Shown piece by piece: positions 7,512 to 36,686 of a DNA stretch of 64,000 nucleotides. The position numbers and the translations under genes are program-made. Under the pieces are notes generated by a model. It was not told the origin of the DNA and ran no database searches. It saw only the letters and a program-made list of their open reading frames with translations. The number at the start of each line of letters is the position of its first letter. Positions within the stretch are counted from its first letter, which is position 1. The DNA comes from an uncultured Candidatus Saccharibacteria bacterium. Lineage in GTDB: Bacteria > Patescibacteriota > Andersenbacteria > UBA10190. Where the stretch lies: positions 8,458 to 72,457 of the forward strand of contig CAYJKV010000003.1 of the NCBI GenBank assembly GCA_964371255.1, given 5' to 3'.

Positions 7512-8222
7512 CTAGTCATATTCCTTATCTGATTTCATTATGACGATTGCTTCATCAAGCAACTTTTGAAAATTTCTATTTTCCCTCCAAGCTTGTCGCA
7601 ACTTATTTCTTAGTATTTGGTGCTTGGGGTAACCCCTGTCCTCAGATAAAATCACAGCATCGAATTCAGGTTCATTCAACAGAATCGTTAGCGCTTCTTT
7701 CAAATTATCGCTTTGCTTCATATTTAATCCGTTCTTCTTCAGATAATTTCTATAGTAATGCAGAAATTGAAGATGCATGATTTCATGGCAAATTGTTGTA
7801 ATCGAATCCGGGAGGCTACGCCACAACGAAACCATGAACCAATTTCCCTTTTCGTTATATGGGCACATGTAGCCTGTCGTCCAAAAACAATTAAACTTCT
7901 CAGAACAAATCGGCTTACCTGTCATTTTCTCTAAAGCTTGCCAGTACTGTTGTTCCACCATCTTCCAGGCGACTTCTAGTGATCTTATTTCTTCTTTAAT
8001 TATCAAATCCCTGTATTTACGTTTCTGATCACCTTGCAGATACTCCCTGATTATTTCTTCAGCGTCTGTAAAACTGGCTTTTAACACCTGCGATAATAAA
8101 TTCTTTGGGATATGGCCGACTTCGTCCTTCCAGTCCAGTCCCCAGAGATTTTTATCTTTAGCAATTAAAACCCAGCTCCAAGCGTCCTTCACGATATCAT
8201 ATTGAAATTTTATTTGTGACAT
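7512..8222 (-). CDS. hypothetical protein with HExxH motif (possible zinc metallopeptidase)
   Basis: ORF with ICHEIMHLQFLHYY (HExxH). The start is taken at ATG 8222 (MSQIKFQYD). The longer TTG-initiated version to 8336 would run into repeat copy A. No family was recognised. Confidence 0.45.
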   Translation of the reverse strand: MSQIKFQYDIVKDAWSWVLIAKDKNLWGLDWKDEVGHIPKNLLSQVLKASFTDAEEIIREYLQGDQKRKYRDLIIKEEIRSLEVAWKMVEQQYWQALEKMTGKPICSEKFNCFWTTGYMCPYNEKGNWFMVSLWRSLPDSITTICHEIMHLQFLHYYRNYLKKNGLNMKQSDNLKEALTILLNEPEFDAVILSEDRGYPKHQILRNKLRQAWRENRNFQKLLDEAIVIMKSDKEYD

Positions 8223-27447: not shown

Positions 27448-27520
27448 ACACTAAGTGTGCACTCGGCAGGATTCGAACCTGCGACCCCCAGCTCCGCAAG
27501 CTGATGCTCTATCCACTGAG
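27448..27520 (-). tRNA. tRNA-Arg (anticodon read as GCG)
   Basis: Manual cloverleaf with acceptor GCACTCG/CGAGTGC, D-arm GCTCAGTGGATAGAGC, anticodon loop TTGCGGA and T-arm GCAGGTTCGAATCCTGC. It resembles E. coli tRNA-Arg. No CCA is encoded. Confidence 0.7.
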
Positions 27521-27825
27521 CTACGAGTGCCCAACTACGCTCTGCTTTCCAGCAGAACTTCGTTGGGCGAGAGGTACGTTATTTAACGTACGCTCGTCCC
27601 GCGAAGCCCTGAGAGAATGCGAAGGGCGAAGTGGGAAGCTACGAGTGCAAGATATAAAATTTTACAGTTTTCAAATCACGTTTTTACAAAGATCCGCGAT
27701 TTCCCCGTGAGTTTACAATACCATCAAAACTCTGGCAACTTTCCCCTTGGTACACCTTCAGGGCATGCCAGGAACTTTCCGGCCGGATAAAAACTATTTA
27801 TAATTAAAAGTGTTATACTATTTCT

Positions 27826-28527
27826 ATGATTATTAGCCGATTTCGTCGTCGCGAAAACAAGCTGCAGCCGCCTATCCCGTCCCAGCCCCAGTCCCCGCCA
27901 GCTACAGATCAATGGAGAAAAAATCACCCTAACGAACCTCTTCGTCAGGCTGCTGAAAAACGCATCGGAACAAGTCAGACGGACCCTCGTTGGCAACATG
28001 AAGCAAAAGAAATGCGGGCCACTCATGACTTGGATGAGGTTGATGATGATGTCGAAAAAGCTGCCACTTTGCTTGAATGGCGGGCGCTGGAACACGAACA
28101 TCGTCCCAAAAGTACTGTCTGGTTCGCGGTCTTGGCTGGCGGAACAACTGCCATCGTCGGCATTATGTTGTTTATTTTTACCAACATCATAGGTGCGATT
28201 ACTGTCGGCCTAATTGGGGGATTAATGTACTACATAGCCCAACAAAAACCGAATGTTACTCGCTATCGGATTATGCTAGATGGCATTGCTTTAAATAATA
28301 TTCTCTACCACTGGGAAGACTTAGCCGCCTTTAATGTTATCTATGAGCCGGGCGAAACCAAGACTGTGATTTTTCGCAGTGCTAAACGTTTTTCACCTTA
28401 CCTGCACATGGAAATAGGGGACGCTGACCCCATAGCTATCCGCGAGATTTTAATGGAATTCGTCACCGAAGATCAGAGCATTGAGGAGCCCATCGCCGAT
28501 ATCATCGCGCGCCGTCTCGGGTTTTAA
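27826..28527 (+). CDS. hypothetical membrane protein (2 TM helices plus possible bacterial PH-like C-terminal domain)
   Basis: TM helices VWFAVLAGGTTAIVGIMLFIF and IIGAITVGLIGGLMYYI. No recognisable catalytic motif. Confidence 0.45.
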   Translation: MIISRFRRRENKLQPPIPSQPQSPPATDQWRKNHPNEPLRQAAEKRIGTSQTDPRWQHEAKEMRATHDLDEVDDDVEKAATLLEWRALEHEHRPKSTVWFAVLAGGTTAIVGIMLFIFTNIIGAITVGLIGGLMYYIAQQKPNVTRYRIMLDGIALNNILYHWEDLAAFNVIYEPGETKTVIFRSAKRFSPYLHMEIGDADPIAIREILMEFVTEDQSIEEPIADIIARRLGF

Positions 28528-28731
28528 AACCAAAAGCTGCAAGATAAAACGACGGATAAAAACCGCCGTTATTTATTTGGGCGGGCCACTAGAGTTAAGT
28601 GCCACCACAGTATGGTATGTTGAGGCCTTTTTCAAGCATTAGTTTGGGCTTGGATTTGAGGCACTCGAGTCGCTATCTAATTTCCGAACTGTTACAAATG
28701 TTACGTTTTTTGGGTTTTGGAGTGTAACATT

Positions 28732-29232
28732 TTATATGATCCGAGTCTCCATTAATTGAATAGTCAGAGCCTGCTCACTCACACGATAGAGCTTTGATAA
28801 CTCTTTTAAATTTCGGGTTTTCTTAAAATCATTTTTAATAAAATCTGTTGGCATAAGCAGTTCGCTTGCAAAAACATTAGCCTCGCGCTCGTTATGAGAC
28901 CCACCACCCTCACTGTTACAGGTATGGCCAAGTAATAGGTGTCCTATCTCATGAGCAATAGTGAAGCGACGTCGATACCAAGGATGACTGGCATTAAAGC
29001 CAATCGTTACGTACTCTTCATCAACTTCCTTGCAGACCACTAGCAACCCGGACACCCTCTCTCCTGCGTCGGGTATATGCTGAACTGCAATTGACCGCGT
29101 AGACTGCAGATACTCAATAACTCGTTGCAAGGAAACAGGAGCCTTGTTCACCGCAACATCTTTTAGAAGTCGTGCCGCGAGGGTCTTAGCAAACTTTTTT
29201 CTGGGACCCAGATTAGGAAGATCGCTTTCCAT
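28732..29232 (-). CDS. ImmA/IrrE-family zinc metallopeptidase
   Basis: HEXXH motif FTIAHEIGHLLLGH in a 160-180-aa protein. It overlaps the 3' end of the upstream XRE gene. The start at MESDL is chosen and a longer version is possible. Confidence 0.7.
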   Translation of the reverse strand: MESDLPNLGPRKKFAKTLAARLLKDVAVNKAPVSLQRVIEYLQSTRSIAVQHIPDAGERVSGLLVVCKEVDEEYVTIGFNASHPWYRRRFTIAHEIGHLLLGHTCNSEGGGSHNEREANVFASELLMPTDFIKNDFKKTRNLKELSKLYRVSEQALTIQLMETRII

Positions 29233-29557
29233 GCTTCTTTTTAGCCATTTCAATAAAATGCAATATGGCATACTTATCTTCGTCGCTTAAATCCTTATCA
29301 GTCCGTAATGCAATTCGCACGTCGACAGGAGCGTCTTCGTCTTGTCCTAGAAAATACTTCGTATCCCTGTGCAAAACTTCGGCAAGTTTAGGCAAAATAC
29401 CCGACGGCACCCGTCGCTCACCACTTTCAATAAGCGAGATCGCAGTAGCAGATTGAAAGCCTACAATTTTAGCTAATTTGAGCTGGGAAAGCCCCCTAGC
29501 CTCACGGGCGGCCTTGATGCGGTCTCCAATACCCCCCTTGTTTTGTTCATTTTTCAT
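29213..29557 (-). CDS. XRE-family helix-turn-helix transcriptional repressor (ImmR/DdrO-like)
   Basis: HTH RIKAAREARGLSQLKLAKIVGFQSATAISLIESGERRVP. It pairs with the downstream ImmA/IrrE gene. ATG 29557 is taken as the start. Confidence 0.7.
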   Translation of the reverse strand: MKNEQNKGGIGDRIKAAREARGLSQLKLAKIVGFQSATAISLIESGERRVPSGILPKLAEVLHRDTKYFLGQDEDAPVDVRIALRTDKDLSDEDKYAILHFIEMAKKKHGKRSS

Positions 29558-29574
29558 ATTGTAACTATAGTATT

Positions 29575-29614
29575 TGCACTTTGATTTGACAAGTGCATTT
29601 ACGTTTTGATAAAT
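29575..29614 (+). promoter_or_regulatory. divergent promoter/operator: palindrome TGCACT-N11-AGTGCA overlapping a TTGACA-17-ATAAAT promoter
   Basis: -35 TTGACA at 29586-29591, a 17-nt spacer, and -10 ATAAAT at 29609-29614, reading toward the GIY-YIG gene. Inverted repeat arms lie at 29575-29580 and 29592-29597. The XRE gene diverges from this region. Confidence 0.5.
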
Positions 29615-29692
29615 TGTGTATAGCAAAGTGAAAGCCGATAGGTCGACGGTGTTCAGCTTTGTCACTTAATTAACAATAGGTAAAAAATCACT

Positions 29693-29998
29693 ATGATCAA
29701 TAAGTACCAAGGAAACTATCCCTATAGTAAAGCAATTGTCAGCGGCTGGAATTCGGTCGCAACAGGTGTCTACTATTGCGGCTCCCTGTCTAATGGTGCC
29801 TTAACGGCACTCTATATAGGGAAGGCAGTTGCTGACGGAGGCATACGCAACCGACTTCTTCAGCACCTGCAAAGCGACAACTGGCCAGGCGTTACTCACT
29901 TTGGGTATCGCACCTGCACCACAGCCCAAGAAGCGGAAAACCTTGAGGCAAGTGAAATCAAGCGCTGTCAGCCAAGGTATAACACACAGGGGAAATGA
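29693..29998 (+). CDS. GIY-YIG nuclease-domain protein (small, stand-alone)
   Basis: GVYY...LYIGKA...RLLQHL...EAENLEASEIKRCQPRYN fits GIY-YIG motifs (GIY, YIG, R, H, E...N). Confidence 0.6.
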   Translation: MINKYQGNYPYSKAIVSGWNSVATGVYYCGSLSNGALTALYIGKAVADGGIRNRLLQHLQSDNWPGVTHFGYRTCTTAQEAENLEASEIKRCQPRYNTQGK

Positions 29999-30031
29999 TA
30001 CGGAAAATCCGTAAAATTAAGCTGAGGCGTA

Positions 30032-30058
30032 AAAGGAGTTAGCAATGCTAGCTCCTTT
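30032..30058. terminator. bidirectional hairpin between convergent GIY-YIG and dinD genes
   Basis: AAAGGAGTTAGCAATGCTAGCTCCTTT has a nested stem (AAAGGAG/CTCCTTT and TAGCA/TGCTA). Confidence 0.45.
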
Positions 30059-30256
30059 ACTATTACCATAAATATATGTCCGCCAAAGAAAAAAATAAGT
30101 ACATATACACCACCGACTATTACCGCATGCGGAAGCTGGTCAAAAATAAGCGTTTCAAGTAAAGACGGCACCAATGAAGAAAAGCGCGAATTAATGGGAT
30201 GCTTTAACTCGAAAATTACGGTCACGAAAAAAGTAGTAGCAATCAGCAAGTAGCTT

Positions 30257-31096
30257 CTACTTCTTTAGTTTTTTTATTTTGTCTAATTGGCCGACTTTTT
30301 TAATCCTTCTTTCGAGTTTTTTTATATCCTCTTCTGGCGGTAAATGTTCCGGATAGATCCCTTCGTCGGTTAACACCTCGCGCACACTGGTATTATGCGA
30401 TTCGTGGGTATGCATTATCTGATTTCCACTCTTTAAGCCTTTTTCCTTAGTCTTAAAAGTTGTCATTTCAGCAGCCAAGTCTTTTGCTTTAATGGTGATT
30501 GTCGGCAGAAAATCAGCTATGGGTCGATTACCCCTGATTCCCAGCTTATCTTTCATTTGCTTTGTCGTTCTACCTCCAAACAATGCCTTGTCGCCAGCAG
30601 ACTTGATAATAGCCAAGCCTCTTCCATCTATACCCCTTTCAAACAAGACGCCAGCAAATTCCTTTTCCGTTTGGGATAACTTTTGTCTTGCTAATAAACG
30701 CTCCAGCGCCCCCATTCGTTCTTGCTGTACTTCTTGTTTTCTGGTCTGAAAAGCAAAATATGTCTGTGCAAGAGCTATTTCTTGATTACTTCGTGGATCG
30801 CCGTTTTGTGCAATTAAGTAGCATGCATATCTTGTTAGTGCGATATCATACACGCCCGTAGCTTGCCTATTGATAGAAATTTGACTTGTTACACGGTGAA
30901 AATGGTCTTCTACCTTAAAGCCACTACGAGCACAGGCCGCTTTTGCTCGATCGATCAGTACAGAAAATTCCGTCCAGTTGGTATATCCTAGAGCTTCCAT
31001 AAAAGCACTGGCAAACCAAAACTCTTCATTATTGGCGTTTACCTGCCTAATTGCTTCAAATTTTTTACCGGCAATACTAAGCTTTAAATCTTCCAT
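30257..31096 (-). CDS. dinD: DNA-damage-inducible protein D family (DinD-like)
   Basis: EEFWFASAFMEALGY...LTRYACYLIAQNGDP...ALAQTYFAFQ parallels E. coli DinD (QEFWSARELAPLLDY...LSRYACYLVVQNGDP...AAQTYFAIQ). Confidence 0.65.
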   Translation of the reverse strand: MEDLKLSIAGKKFEAIRQVNANNEEFWFASAFMEALGYTNWTEFSVLIDRAKAACARSGFKVEDHFHRVTSQISINRQATGVYDIALTRYACYLIAQNGDPRSNQEIALAQTYFAFQTRKQEVQQERMGALERLLARQKLSQTEKEFAGVLFERGIDGRGLAIIKSAGDKALFGGRTTKQMKDKLGIRGNRPIADFLPTITIKAKDLAAEMTTFKTKEKGLKSGNQIMHTHESHNTSVREVLTDEGIYPEHLPPEEDIKKLERRIKKVGQLDKIKKLKK

Positions 31097-31189
31097 AGTC
31101 CATCTATGTTACATTTGTTGTTCGGCGTCGACAAGTCATATTGCCGTGCAGTCTAGGCACTCGCGTCACCCGATACTTAATATTTAAGG

Positions 31190-31279
31190 CGGAGAGGGTG
31201 GGATTCGAACCCACGGACCGGTTTTACCCAGTCAACGGTTTAGCAAACCGCTCTATTCGGCCACTCTAGCACCTCTCCC
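31190..31279 (-). tRNA. tRNA-Ser (anticodon GCT)
   Basis: Acceptor GGAGAGG/CCTCTCC, long variable arm, anticodon loop TGCTAAA and T-arm GTGGGTTCGAATCCCAC. Confidence 0.8.
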
Positions 31280-31384
31280 AGTAATGCATTATTACCTAAA
31301 TTTGCCTCTTATGTAAAATATTAGTATAAAGTCTGCACAGACGCATTCGTATTTATAGCTCTTTAGAAACTACTATATATTAAG

Positions 31385-31456
31385 CACCCGTAGCTCAATT
31401 GGCAGAGCAGATCCCTCTTAAGGATACGGCTGAAGGTTCAAGTCCTTCCGGGTGCA
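31385..31456 (+). tRNA. tRNA-Lys (anticodon CTT)
   Basis: Acceptor GCACCCG/CGGGTGC, D-arm GCTCAATTGGCAGAGC, anticodon loop CTCTTAA and T-arm GAAGGTTCAAGTCCTTC. Confidence 0.8.
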
Positions 31457-31517
31457 CAATAGACAATAGAGTGAAGCGACTTCCCCAACAACTTAAGATG
31501 AGATATAAAGGGTACAC

Positions 31518-31604
31518 GGAGAGATCGCATAGCGGCCGAGTGCGCGTGCTTGGAAAGCACGTAGGGCTTCACCGCCCTCGAGGGTTCGAATCCCTCTCTC
31601 TCCG
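31518..31604 (+). tRNA. tRNA-Ser (anticodon GGA)
   Basis: Acceptor GGAGAGA/TCTCTCC, anticodon stem-loop CGTGC-TTGGAAA-GCACG, long variable arm and T-arm GAGGGTTCGAATCCCTC. Confidence 0.8.
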
Positions 31605-31765
31605 CAGCAAAAAGAATTTTTGCGAGGAAGAGCGAGCGAATGACATTGAGTCATTCGCGTTGGGATGAGAAGGCCGGAGCAATGTGCGAGTTTGCCCATC
31701 AAGGCAAGGCGAGCACTGCGAGGCCAGGCCCGGAAGAAATTCCCGTCAGGGAATTTACTGTAGGG

Positions 31766-31783
31766 GAATCCCTCTCTCTCCGC
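31766..31783 (+). repeat. 18-bp direct repeat of the tRNA-Ser(GGA) 3' end (GAATCCCTCTCTCTCCGC), an att-like remnant
   Basis: Identical to 31588-31605 inside the tRNA. The intervening 160 bp carries two perfect hairpins (GCGAATGAC/GTCATTCGC and AAATTCCC/GGGAATTT). Confidence 0.6.
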
Positions 31784-31830
31784 CAAGACAAGTTTTATCG
31801 CGCAACCCATGGGTAACATACTAATAAAAT

Positions 31831-32664
31831 ATGAAGCGCTATCGTATTTTGAACATTGATTTTGATTCCAGGGCAATACTATTGTCTCAAAAAATTGGAG
31901 ATCATTGGGAAGAGCAAGTTAAAAATCTCTATCGTGAGAACAAAGAAAAGACTAGCGCTGGTCTCATTGAAGAGTTTGGGGAGTTCCGGTTTGAAGATAA
32001 GCTTAAGAATTTCTTAGATCTTGGCCCTAAGCCTTTCTCTATCATTGCATTTCACAACAAATTCTTTGAGCAATGCCGTAGAGCCTTTATTGTTGAAGCA
32101 TATTATTCAGCTCTTACAGGTGCATGTGCTCTAGGTGAAAGAATATTAAATCATTTGATTTTAGCGCTTCGTGATGATTTTAAGTCTACACCTGAGTACA
32201 AGCATGTATACCGCAATGAGTCATTCGATGATTGGAATCGGGCTATTACCACGCTTGAAACATGGAATGTTTTGTTATTATCAACAGCAAAGAAGTTTCG
32301 AGAACTTGCCGATGTTAGACACAGAGAAGCACTTCATTTCAATTCAGAAATAGAAAGCAATGATCGGGAAATTGCATTAAAAGCATTAAAACTATTAGAA
32401 AGTATAATATTAAACCAGTTTGCTGCTTGGGGAAGTTTGCCTTGGATTTTTATCATTCCGGGGCAGGCTTACATAAAGAGGCAGTATGAAGTAGATCCTT
32501 TTGTGCGAAAGGTGTATTTGCCAAACTGTGTATATGTTGGCCCCTTTCATAAAGTTAAAGAGATAACGCCAGAGGGTCACTGGATAATTCAGGATCAGGA
32601 ATATGAAGATCGGGAAATTACGGACGAGGAATTTTCTAGATTACAAACTCAAGGAAAAATTTAG
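31831..32664 (+). CDS. hypothetical protein, AT-rich (~36% GC), with Rx5H (HEPN-like) motif
   Basis: A 277-aa ORF immediately downstream of the tRNA cluster and att-like repeat. Motif ADVRHREALHF. Composition differs from its neighbours. It is followed by a hairpin terminator. Confidence 0.5.
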   Translation: MKRYRILNIDFDSRAILLSQKIGDHWEEQVKNLYRENKEKTSAGLIEEFGEFRFEDKLKNFLDLGPKPFSIIAFHNKFFEQCRRAFIVEAYYSALTGACALGERILNHLILALRDDFKSTPEYKHVYRNESFDDWNRAITTLETWNVLLLSTAKKFRELADVRHREALHFNSEIESNDREIALKALKLLESIILNQFAAWGSLPWIFIIPGQAYIKRQYEVDPFVRKVYLPNCVYVGPFHKVKEITPEGHWIIQDQEYEDREITDEEFSRLQTQGKI

Positions 32665-32777
32665 CAACAATGACCCAACCTACCTACATCAATTTGTGTT
32701 TCGAATTGACCTTCAATAAAAGCCTCAACACACGGAAAGGTGTGGGTACCTAACCCAAGTGGCCCGCATCTAATATA

Positions 32778-32803
32778 AAACCGGCATCAGCCGGTATTTT
32801 ATT
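32778..32803 (+). terminator. intrinsic terminator after the 277-aa gene
   Basis: AAACCGGCATCAGCCGGTATTTTATT. Confidence 0.6.
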
Positions 32804-32991
32804 AGATATGATACTAGTGGGATTCGAAGGGTATTCTAAAAACGTAAAATTGATTTACGTTTTTAGAAACCCTATCTGCGAAGGAGGAGCCAAACCTCAA
32901 GCGAAGCGAGTGCGAGGCGATGGGTGAGCAGGAAGCCCTCTCTTTGCAATAATAAGAGAGGCTGACCTTGCCTCCGCTGCTTTTAATTTTA

Positions 32992-36441: not shown

Positions 36442-36686
36442 TAAAACGTAAAAAGCAAAATTAAAAGCAACGGTCTAAAGCTAAAAATAACCACTCAATT
36501 AAGCCCGTATTCAAAAATTGCATTTAACAATCTGTATATTATGAACATGTTATTTTCGCTAATTTTTATCCGTAGTCGCGTTTCTAATTTGAGATTTTTA
36601 GATTTCTAATTTGTTTCGGATTTCCAGATTTCGAATTTCGGATTTTAAAGTATCCCTTTGCTTTTTTCTCTTTACGTTTTACGTTC
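36442..36686. repeat. A-rich inverted-repeat pair of the GCGTAAAA family flanking the clpC/recX divergent promoter region
   Basis: Left arm TTAAAACGTAAAAAGCAAAAT (36442-36472). Right arm CTTTACGTTTTACGTTCTAA (36655-36686), which is its approximate reverse complement. Related pairs lie at 38659-38779 and 49805-49945. Confidence 0.5.

Follow-up and report, generated by a model that had tools for sequence, protein, structure and literature searches.

A 64-kb stretch of DNA from an uncultured Candidatus Saccharibacteria bacterium (contig CAYJKV010000003.1, positions 8,458 to 72,457; 64,000 nucleotides, hereafter the window) carries a short operon made up of an XRE-family helix-turn-helix (HTH) repressor gene and an M78 metallopeptidase gene, divergent from a gene for a very small GIY-YIG nuclease. 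The layout was established from a listing of open reading frames (ORFs), a tRNA scan and direct reading of 27800-32400. The start codon of the peptidase is the one set by the gene callers of the source assemblies, which begins the protein with MESDL and gives 166 aa; promoters were located by a consensus scan. The features of the operon, the divergent gene and their downstream neighbors are as follows.

28732-29232, minus strand: M78 (COG2856, ImmA/IrrE-type) zinc metallopeptidase gene, 166 aa; PF06114 at 4.5e-18
29213-29557, minus strand: XRE-family HTH repressor gene, 114 aa; Pfam HTH_3 at 2.1e-10
29551-29565, 29573-29587, 29598-29612 and 29620-29634: four phased 15-bp boxes, putative operators, family consensus TTwTCA-N3-TGaTAa
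29564-29592, minus strand: promoter of the repressor-peptidase operon, TTGTCA-17-TATAGT
29586-29615, plus strand: nuclease promoter, sigma-70-like, TTGACA (at 29586)-18-TAAATT with an extended -10 TG
29623-29662, plus strand: stem-loop in the 5' leader of the nuclease mRNA, P1 GCAAAG/CTTTGT, P2 GCCG/CGGT, loop AUAGGUCGA; from the minimum free energy fold
29693-29998, plus strand: gene for a stand-alone UvrC/Cho-type GIY-YIG nuclease, 101 aa, divergent from the repressor gene; the putative regulated cargo
29968-30249, minus strand: 93-aa ORF, possibly no gene, with no homologues outside its own species
30257-31096, minus strand: DinD homologue with a Bro-N domain, convergent; NCBIfam PRK11525 at 2.1e-87

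The 3' end of the repressor gene overlaps the peptidase gene by 20 nt (29213-29232), and 135 nt separate the repressor gene from the nuclease gene.

The proteins and their conserved pairing

The peptidase has the active site H94-E95-x-x-H98 (HEIGH) together with E117, invariant across the alignment of its homologues. We found 363 M78 homologues, the closest of which (60-69% identity, about 166 aa) are annotated as ImmA/IrrE in Patescibacteria. The protein consists of the peptidase domain, with the M78 domain reaching residue 160, and three short helices; there is no GAF domain. Its profile matches CapP (7t5t, 3.8e-10) and IrrE (3dte, 2.7e-8), in each over the peptidase part only, and the AlphaFold2 (AF2) model (pLDDT 90.6) finds its best Foldseek match in IrrE/PprI (TMq 0.63, TMt 0.44). 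In PADLOC the pair is matched best by capP (2.4e-23, with just positions 5-152 of the 242-position profile covered) and capH (2.6e-13). The switch-loop insertion is likewise missing: H98 and E117 are 19 residues apart, compared to 29 in CapP. Because it is short and has no GAF domain of the kind found in CapP and IrrE, the window peptidase is ImmA-like by architecture; a GAF domain is generally absent from the IrrE-like proteins of mobile elements.

The repressor profile has its best solved-structure match in C.BclI (2.4e-7) and also matches the HTH domain of ImmR (7t8i, 1.6e-4). About 30 residues from the C-terminus lies the motif A83-L84-R85 (ALRxDKDL family-wide; ALRADKDL), invariant in 21 orthologues. 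Known cut sites are of the hydrophobic-arginine type, between F82 and R83 in CapH and between L106 and R107 in DdrO; because of these precedents, and because A-L-R is invariant, cleavage is predicted between L84 and R85.

For the 101-aa nuclease, Pfam, including the GIY-YIG model PF01541, returned no match. The profile of its own family, however, matches the N-terminal endonuclease domain of UvrC (1yd6) at 5.5e-6, and the AF2 model (pLDDT 92) has fold matches in the PDB only to UvrC GIY-YIG domains (1yd6/1ycz; TM 0.67-0.72, over the whole length). Forty-seven homologues of about 100 aa were found; G25-V-Y-Y, Y41-x-G43, R54, H58, E85/E88 and N97 are invariant in 27 homologues. An exhaustive profile search of 1.84 billion representatives gave 261 clusters at E <=1e-3, nearly all of them stand-alone proteins of about 100 aa. 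The mini-GIY-YIG family is rare.

An earlier note on this DNA had described an XRE gene overlapping an ImmA/IrrE-type HEXXH peptidase gene by about 20 nt, a small divergent GIY-YIG nuclease gene, and a likeness of the pair to ImmR/ImmA and DdrO/IrrE. The gene pair is confirmed by the HTH_3 and PF06114 matches and the HEIGH motif, the nuclease by its catalytic motifs, family profile and AF2 fold; the capP and capH matches and the divergent nuclease gene support the likeness.

Related loci were gathered by exact-match look-ups, one genome scan and one metagenome scan, and their ORFs were classed by phmmer, by reading and by NCBIfam. The named hosts are mostly metagenome-assembled genomes (MAGs) of Patescibacteria, or candidate phyla radiation (CPR), and the family occurs across CPR classes and in a few non-CPR MAGs. 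Upstream sequence was available for 51 distinct loci, and in 45 of these the GIY-YIG gene has a repressor gene as its immediate upstream neighbor, in divergent orientation. The repressor is of the XRE type with an M78 partner in 28, LexA-like (S24) in 13, and a fusion of XRE to a SocA/Panacea domain in four. All ten LexA-like repressors scanned have TIGR00498 as their best match over nearly the full length, two of them above the curated cut-off. The other genes of the region do not follow: the 93-aa ORF and both unknown ORFs flanking the region occur in none of the approximately 50 other loci, and DinD occurs in just one, as a distant homologue (L079). The conserved unit is the repressor with its divergent mini-GIY-YIG gene, and not a block of four genes. 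The best evidence for damage-inducibility of the nuclease gene is that LexA has repeatedly taken the place of the XRE/M78 pair.

A second kind of exchange is apparent in sister switches, where the same promoter architecture precedes other cargo. In two (L097, L098) the cargo is a 90-aa ORF and a DUF2188 gene, followed by a backbone of a 137-aa ORF, a methylase, terS/terL-like genes and a recombinase; a third (L095) has the same 90-aa ORF and then a ThsB-type TIR protein, and a fourth (L096) an MBL-fold protein. Judged by these combinations, both the switch and the nuclease appear to be modular parts of mobile and defence DNA.

The surroundings of the cassette were surveyed by a Pfam census of 148 ORFs within approximately 2.5 kb in 48 loci. 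Methylases were counted as 19 N6_N4, 4 N6_Mtase, 4 D12-class, 3 Eco57I-type and 1 C5; ResIII, PD-(D/E)XK and HNH domains and endonucleases of the ScaI, BglI and SfiI types were also present. At least 12 loci have an N6_N4 methylase gene as the downstream neighbor of the nuclease gene, five of them with both genes on one strand, and a serine recombinase lies downstream in six (L013, L026, L027, L015, L020, L031). Three of these six (L013, L026, L027) have a 425-aa methylase gene, terS-like and terL-like genes and the gene for a large serine recombinase downstream of the nuclease gene; in L013 and L027 these are preceded by a conserved 137-aa ORF, the same as in L097 and L098. An OLD nuclease gene adjoins the cassette in L013. 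In the literature we found no description of a module that combines XRE/COG2856 with GIY-YIG.

Some arrangements among the relatives deserve record in their own right. A compact element recurs in CPR-type contigs (L013 5019-11679, about 6.7 kb; L026, L027, L097, L098) in the order M78, XRE, divergent small early gene or genes, usually the 137-aa ORF, the 425-aa N6_N4 methylase, terS-like, terL-like and large serine recombinase; in appearance the element resembles a satellite or defective prophage. The XRE-SocA/Panacea fusions divergent from the nuclease gene lie at L015 5195-5878, L025 5157-5852, L052 1471-2250 and L063 519-1244, and in L015, L052 and L063 a small ORF (111-158 aa), toxin-like by appearance, comes after the fusion. 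In L043 an insertion sequence-type transposase ORF (67-972, 301 aa) stands in place of the peptidase gene; repressor, promoter and nuclease gene are intact and adjoin a type II restriction-modification pair.

Promoters, boxes and leader hairpin

The -35 hexamers of the two divergent promoters overlap. The nuclease promoter is the site given in the earlier note as TTGACA-17-ATAAAT, shifted by one base, and XRE/M78-type loci share a near-invariant promoter core, TGATTTGACA-N17/18-TGATAAAyT. On the other strand, the -10 hexamer of the repressor promoter (TATAGT) ends 7 nt before the ATG, a spacing that recurs in the orthologous promoters. A Shine-Dalgarno sequence would not fit into so short a stretch, which makes it probable that the repressor mRNA is leaderless; many phage repressor transcripts are of this kind.

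Spaced 22-25 bp apart, the four boxes extend from the repressor start codon across the two promoters into the beginning of the leader. In 28 orthologous promoters they occupy the same four positions relative to the -35 hexamer (-35, -13, +11/12 and +33/34). The consensus at each position (TTTTCATATTGttAt, tTaTCAaaatGATTT, TTaTCAtTTTGaTAA and aTAGCAaagTGaaAa, respectively) is a version of TTwTCA-N3-TGaTAa. A position weight matrix (PWM) trained on the other loci, with the window left out, placed all four window boxes in the top 25 of 64,000 positions. The recognition-helix region of the repressor, SATAISLIESGER, is invariant in 21 aligned repressors, which argues for one shared operator type; it is to the four boxes that the repressor would bind. 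Across the 64 kb the PWM gave no match upstream of DinD and none tied to a promoter beyond the cassette's own intergenic region; the strongest outside matches, for example at 8194 (score 16.5) and at 36452 in the clpC-recX intergenic region (11.5), were not closely examined.

The earlier note had placed the operator elsewhere, on a perfect palindrome, TGCACT-N11-AGTGCA, and had proposed that further copies be sought as a mark of a regulon. The palindrome exists (29575-29597); its true arms are 7 bp long (TGCACTT-N9-AAGTGCA), and it is the sole copy without mismatch in the window. However, dinucleotide shuffles of the 135-nt intergenic region contain an arm of at least 7 bp in 19% of cases and of at least 6 bp in 54%, and the palindrome is absent from the orthologous promoters of related loci. 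Allowing up to two mismatches, the window contains three matches, compared to 2.2 expected. We rejected the palindrome as operator or regulon marker (P ~0.19 for arms of at least 7 bp; not conserved); the four phased boxes are conserved instead, and the palindrome, though real, is probably incidental. A dispersed regulon under one operator motif, the hallmark of DdrO/IrrE, is not apparent: neither palindrome nor box PWM finds further promoter sites in the 64 kb.

Two other sequence patterns were noted. The 9-mer TTACGTTTT occurs six times in the window (28701, 29599, 32839 on the minus strand, 32855, 36443 on the minus strand, and 36672), compared to 0.9 expected, and none of 100 shuffles reaches six. 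Box 3 of the nuclease promoter holds one copy. Another two make up a perfect palindrome with 15-bp arms at 32834-32868, downstream of a 277-aa ORF, and a further two lie between clpC and recX, one at a distance of 20 nt upstream of recX. A longer motif common to the sites was not seen. Separately, in three LexA-type loci (L019, L020, L011) a palindrome, TTGTCAA-N14-TTGACAA, lies upstream of the GIY-YIG gene, with the -35 hexamer of the nuclease promoter as its right arm; the palindrome is a candidate for the LexA box used by CPR LexA-like repressors.

A stem-loop of two helices lies between the nuclease -10 hexamer and the start codon in 22 XRE/M78-type loci. In the family, P1 is GCAAAG(UG)/(CR)CUUUGC, the internal loop GAAAA (invariant GUGAAAA), P2 has 4 bp and the loop is ..AAAGGUCGN. 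When the 22 leaders are aligned to this specified structure, 79.7% of cells pair and seven of 13 pairs are double-changed; all four P2 pairs covary (UCCG/CGGA, CCAA/UUGG, CCAG/CUGG, GCCG/CGGU). The covariation score is 0.306, compared to 0.213 in shuffles, of which none of 500 reaches the observed value, and to 0.03-0.14 in slid controls. RNAalifold gives the same helices. These figures come from mutually related sequences, with a modest excess of G-U over A-C (27 versus 16 cells); box 4 falls on the 5' half of P1, which mixes DNA-level with RNA-level constraints, and the fold z-score of the window's own leader is only -1.7.

An Rfam scan of the intergenic region returned noise only, and the hairpin matches no family. 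A covariance model built from the leaders finds its training sites alone in 419 kb, all on the sense strand, and does not reach the leaders of LexA-type loci. Hairpins with a GTCG(A/G) loop at -75 to -20 are nevertheless present in 12 of 33 loci of other types, LexA and Panacea included, where 1.6 are expected. The conserved covarying leader hairpin without an Rfam match is a new observation. The hairpin, with its apical loop AAAGGUCG, is also seen at L018 5914-5971, L022 936-993 and L040 3915-3972, among others.

These data allow a more speculative proposal, to which we give little weight. The nuclease and its (A)GGUCG-loop hairpin might together form an undescribed stress-induced effector unit that fits any cleavable repressor, whether XRE/M78, LexA or XRE-Panacea, with the hairpin serving either as a new cis-regulatory RNA or as the nuclease's own nucleic-acid target in autoregulation or nicking. 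If so, ultra-small CPR bacteria would be using the nuclease-hairpin unit as a minimal nuclease system triggered by damage or infection.

A probable portable switch and its rival explanations

ICEBs1, Deinococcus and the cyclic-oligonucleotide-based antiphage signaling system (CBASS) are known to use cleavable-repressor switches of the XRE/M78 kind. We think it probable, with some reserve, that the locus is an ImmR/ImmA-type switch with a single cargo gene, a portable cassette of the accessory genome of Patescibacteria/CPR-like bacteria that resides in mobile elements and defence islands. The XRE repressor, sitting on the four boxes (29551-29634), would shut the nuclease promoter and probably autoregulate its own, likely leaderless, operon. 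Upon a stress signal, most likely DNA damage or an element-induction cue, the short M78 peptidase would cut the repressor between L84 and R85 and so remove its C-terminal oligomerisation helix. Repression would then collapse, and the 101-aa UvrC-type GIY-YIG nuclease would be made from an mRNA starting with the conserved hairpin. The analysis shows the identities and folds of the gene products, the pairing of the nuclease gene with exchangeable repressors, the array of boxes, the covariation in the leader and the genomic surroundings; that the repressor binds the boxes, that it is cleaved and where, what sets off the cleavage and what the nuclease does, we infer. A connection of the switch to stress or damage is probable. 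As to what the nuclease does behind such a switch, we tentatively rank an anti-phage or anti-element effector highest, an early function of an integrative element (excision, replication or attack on host DNA) next, and Cho-like repair lowest.

The cassette was compared with characterised systems. Like ImmR/ImmA of Bacillus subtilis ICEBs1 and the phi105 repressor/ImmA, it has an XRE gene followed by a short (about 170 aa) GAF-less M78 gene; as in ImmR/ImmA, where the repressor is inactivated by proteolysis near its C-terminus, the pair is divergent from the promoter of the repressed genes and, in relatives, lies at the edge of a small integrative element. It differs in that the sequences are distant (7t8i at 1.6e-4, and no match of the window peptidase to an ImmA structure), the first derepressed gene is a GIY-YIG nuclease rather than an excisionase, the host is of the CPR type, and the window has neither integrase nor transfer genes. 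The IrrE (PprI) and DdrO pair of the Deinococcus radiation-desiccation response supplies the best structural match, a cut between L and R near the C-terminus and independence from LexA. IrrE, however, carries a GAF domain, and the chromosomal regulon under its control, about 20 repair genes, is addressed via the radiation-desiccation response motif (RDRM), whereas here, by the 64-kb scan, operator boxes are found at one local promoter only. The nuclease, for its part, resembles E. coli Cho, a LexA-controlled paralogue of UvrC, and the N-terminal GIY-YIG domain of UvrC in fold and catalytic residues, and is linked to LexA in 13 loci; unlike them it has only 101 aa, no UvrB-interaction region or further domain, and is rare and found in accessory DNA. 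The best family-level match, by PADLOC and PDB profile, is to the CapH/CapP pair that regulates CBASS as well as further immune operons (Lau et al. 2022; Calloji et al. 2026) and that the cassette resembles in divergent position, defence-island neighborhood and a small repressor with a C-terminal oligomerisation region cut between a hydrophobic residue and arginine. CapP, of about 290 aa, comprises peptidase, HTH-like and GAF domains, binds single-stranded DNA (ssDNA) in a groove between peptidase and GAF, and in about one third of cases has a cysteine-switch loop; the window peptidase, by contrast, has 166 aa and neither GAF domain nor switch-loop insertion.

Several observations weigh against the favored explanation. 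Residence in a mobile element, as expected of an ImmR/ImmA-type switch, is seen in relatives (L013, L026, L027, L031, L097, L098), whereas an att-like scar and low GC are all that the window shows. The window cassette is accompanied by neither recombinase nor terminase nor methyltransferase, so that a mobile-element origin is drawn from the relatives, and no serine-recombinase homologue occurs anywhere in the 64 kb. An empty site was not seen, all assemblies of the species carrying the islet identically, and a scan of IMG/VR viral contigs for the nuclease family gave no relative. With the GAF domain, which contributes to the ssDNA groove of CapP/IrrE, missing, homology does not establish a DNA-damage trigger. 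A repair role would agree just as well with the LexA-linked loci and the UvrC-type fold. Finally, many of the loci counted above are close relatives, and their numbers do not represent independent events.

A repair role is central to the explanation offered in the earlier note, a compact SOS-like regulon of the host. Here the XRE/M78 pair would replace LexA and control repair genes, including a GIY-YIG 'mini-Cho' and DinD. The nuclease is indeed closest to the UvrC/Cho GIY-YIG domain, and its position opposite LexA-like repressors in 13 loci looks like non-orthologous displacement at a damage-inducible gene; moreover, there is no S24/LexA gene within the 64-kb window, and recX is 7 kb away. 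Yet the window holds no second operator, neither box nor palindrome occurs upstream of DinD or recX at a meaningful score, DinD is no conserved neighbor (one of about 50 loci, L079), and the neighbors are restriction-modification, defence and recombinase genes, not repair genes. A family so rare and so patchy across CPR classes and a few non-CPR MAGs, found here in a low-GC islet and elsewhere beside restriction-modification genes or within recombinase/terminase-like elements, makes a host regulon improbable. The damage link of the earlier note keeps comparative support, from the 13 loci with a LexA-like S24 repressor. Closer to the evidence is the alternative offered there, that the segment is the immunity region of a decayed mobile element. 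It is also possible, though we doubt it, that the cassette is an anti-phage module regulated in the manner of CapH/CapP, in which ssDNA or DNA damage, arising in the course of infection or restriction, would release the synthesis of a toxic nicking nuclease that works alongside restriction-modification systems as an effector of the second line or of the abortive type. This overlaps with the portable-switch explanation and differs only by committing to a role for the nuclease. In its favor are the capP and capH matches, the divergent placement of CapH/CapP-like pairs upstream of many immune operons, the strong enrichment of restriction-modification genes among the neighbors with OLD adjoining in L013, genes with ThsB-type (Thoeris) TIR and SduA_C (Shedu) domains around sister switches, the match of DinD to the PADLOC candidate defence gene PDC-S13 (5.4e-96), and the interchangeable regulators, as reported for immune operons. 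However, the peptidase is without the GAF domain and cysteine-switch loop that define ssDNA-activated CapP, PADLOC offers no convincing defence model for the nuclease (best E 0.005), and a 101-aa catalytic core shows no evident targeting domain.

Two further explanations assign the genes quite different functions, and both are very improbable. COG2856 and Xre have been proposed, from comparative genomics, to form a toxin-antitoxin pair, with protease as toxin and HTH protein as antitoxin, which would make the nuclease unrelated. There are weak NCBIfam matches to the spr1629 repressor/antitoxin family, and in four loci the neighbor is an XRE-Panacea fusion, Panacea being an antitoxin-type domain; but the divergent nuclease gene is the conserved partner whatever the type of repressor, LexA can replace the pair, and the characterised relatives ImmA, IrrE and CapP act on their own repressors and not as toxins. 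Alternatively, the XRE protein might be a C-protein-like controller of restriction-modification and the GIY-YIG protein a restriction or nicking subunit, a suggestion that draws on the C.BclI match and on the N6_N4 methyltransferases directly downstream of the nuclease gene. Against it, the window has no methyltransferase, the adjacent restriction-modification systems of relatives already own a ScaI-type or BglI-type endonuclease, and the 101-aa protein has no specificity domain; to our knowledge, C proteins have no protease partner.

The comparison adds two things to what is known of such switches. One is the whole promoter-operator architecture, with four boxes, overlapping divergent promoters and a probably leaderless repressor mRNA, as a reusable CPR part. 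The other is a two-way modularity, in which different cargo stands behind one switch and one rare nuclease under three mechanistically different repressors. This modularity offers a natural test bed for how GAF-less ImmA-type peptidases sense their signal and for what a bare GIY-YIG core does when induced. In annotation, the co-occurrence of DinD, a nuclease and an XRE/M78 pair should not be taken as a host SOS substitute.

The islet and its flanks

The cassette and DinD lie in an islet bordered by tRNA genes, with one ORF without a family match on either side.

27457-27530, minus strand: tRNA-Arg(gcg), from the tRNA scan
27826-28527: 233-aa ORF flanking the islet, no family match
31188-31605: tRNA-Ser(gct) on the minus strand, tRNA-Lys(ctt) and tRNA-Ser(gga) on the plus strand, border of the islet, from the tRNA scan
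31831-32664: 277-aa ORF, 38-40% GC, no family match

The tRNA scan agrees with the earlier note, which had set the segment between tRNA-Arg and a cluster of three tRNAs. Its identification of a clear convergent DinD homologue is equally sound: the protein matches the NCBIfam equivalog NF008573 over residues 9-268 with 293 bits, compared to a cut-off of 242. What did not hold is the inclusion of DinD in one regulon with the switch, as the gene has no box upstream; DinD is an independent neighbor of the defence-island type, and not a conserved partner.

The block 28400-32900 has a GC-content of 40-45%, compared to approximately 50% on either side. The 18 nt at the 3' end of tRNA-Ser(gga) (31588-31605) recur exactly as a direct repeat at 31766-31783 on the plus strand, 160 nt downstream of the tRNA and ahead of the 277-aa ORF, where 0.02 matches are expected; this copy is an att-like scar of past integration. 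A corresponding copy of the 3' end of tRNA-Ser(gct) was looked for at the left border of the islet and not found. In every assembly the module region is identical or has at most one mismatch, except for a gap in L008; a repressor that seemed truncated in L008 is an artefact of this run of Ns. Within this low-GC islet between tRNA genes, the window cassette resembles an orphan copy or a remnant.

An inverted repeat of 50 nt (28581-28630 and 32718-32767; 74% complementary, with perfect 10-mers at the ends) brackets the low-GC block almost exactly, enclosing the switch, the nuclease gene, DinD, the three tRNAs and the 277-aa ORF; no further copies occur in the window. The 233-aa ORF, in which a hydrophobic stretch is suggested by reading of its sequence, has a single distant homologue (3.6e-14), at L015 9378-9827, about 3 kb from the GIY-YIG gene of that locus.

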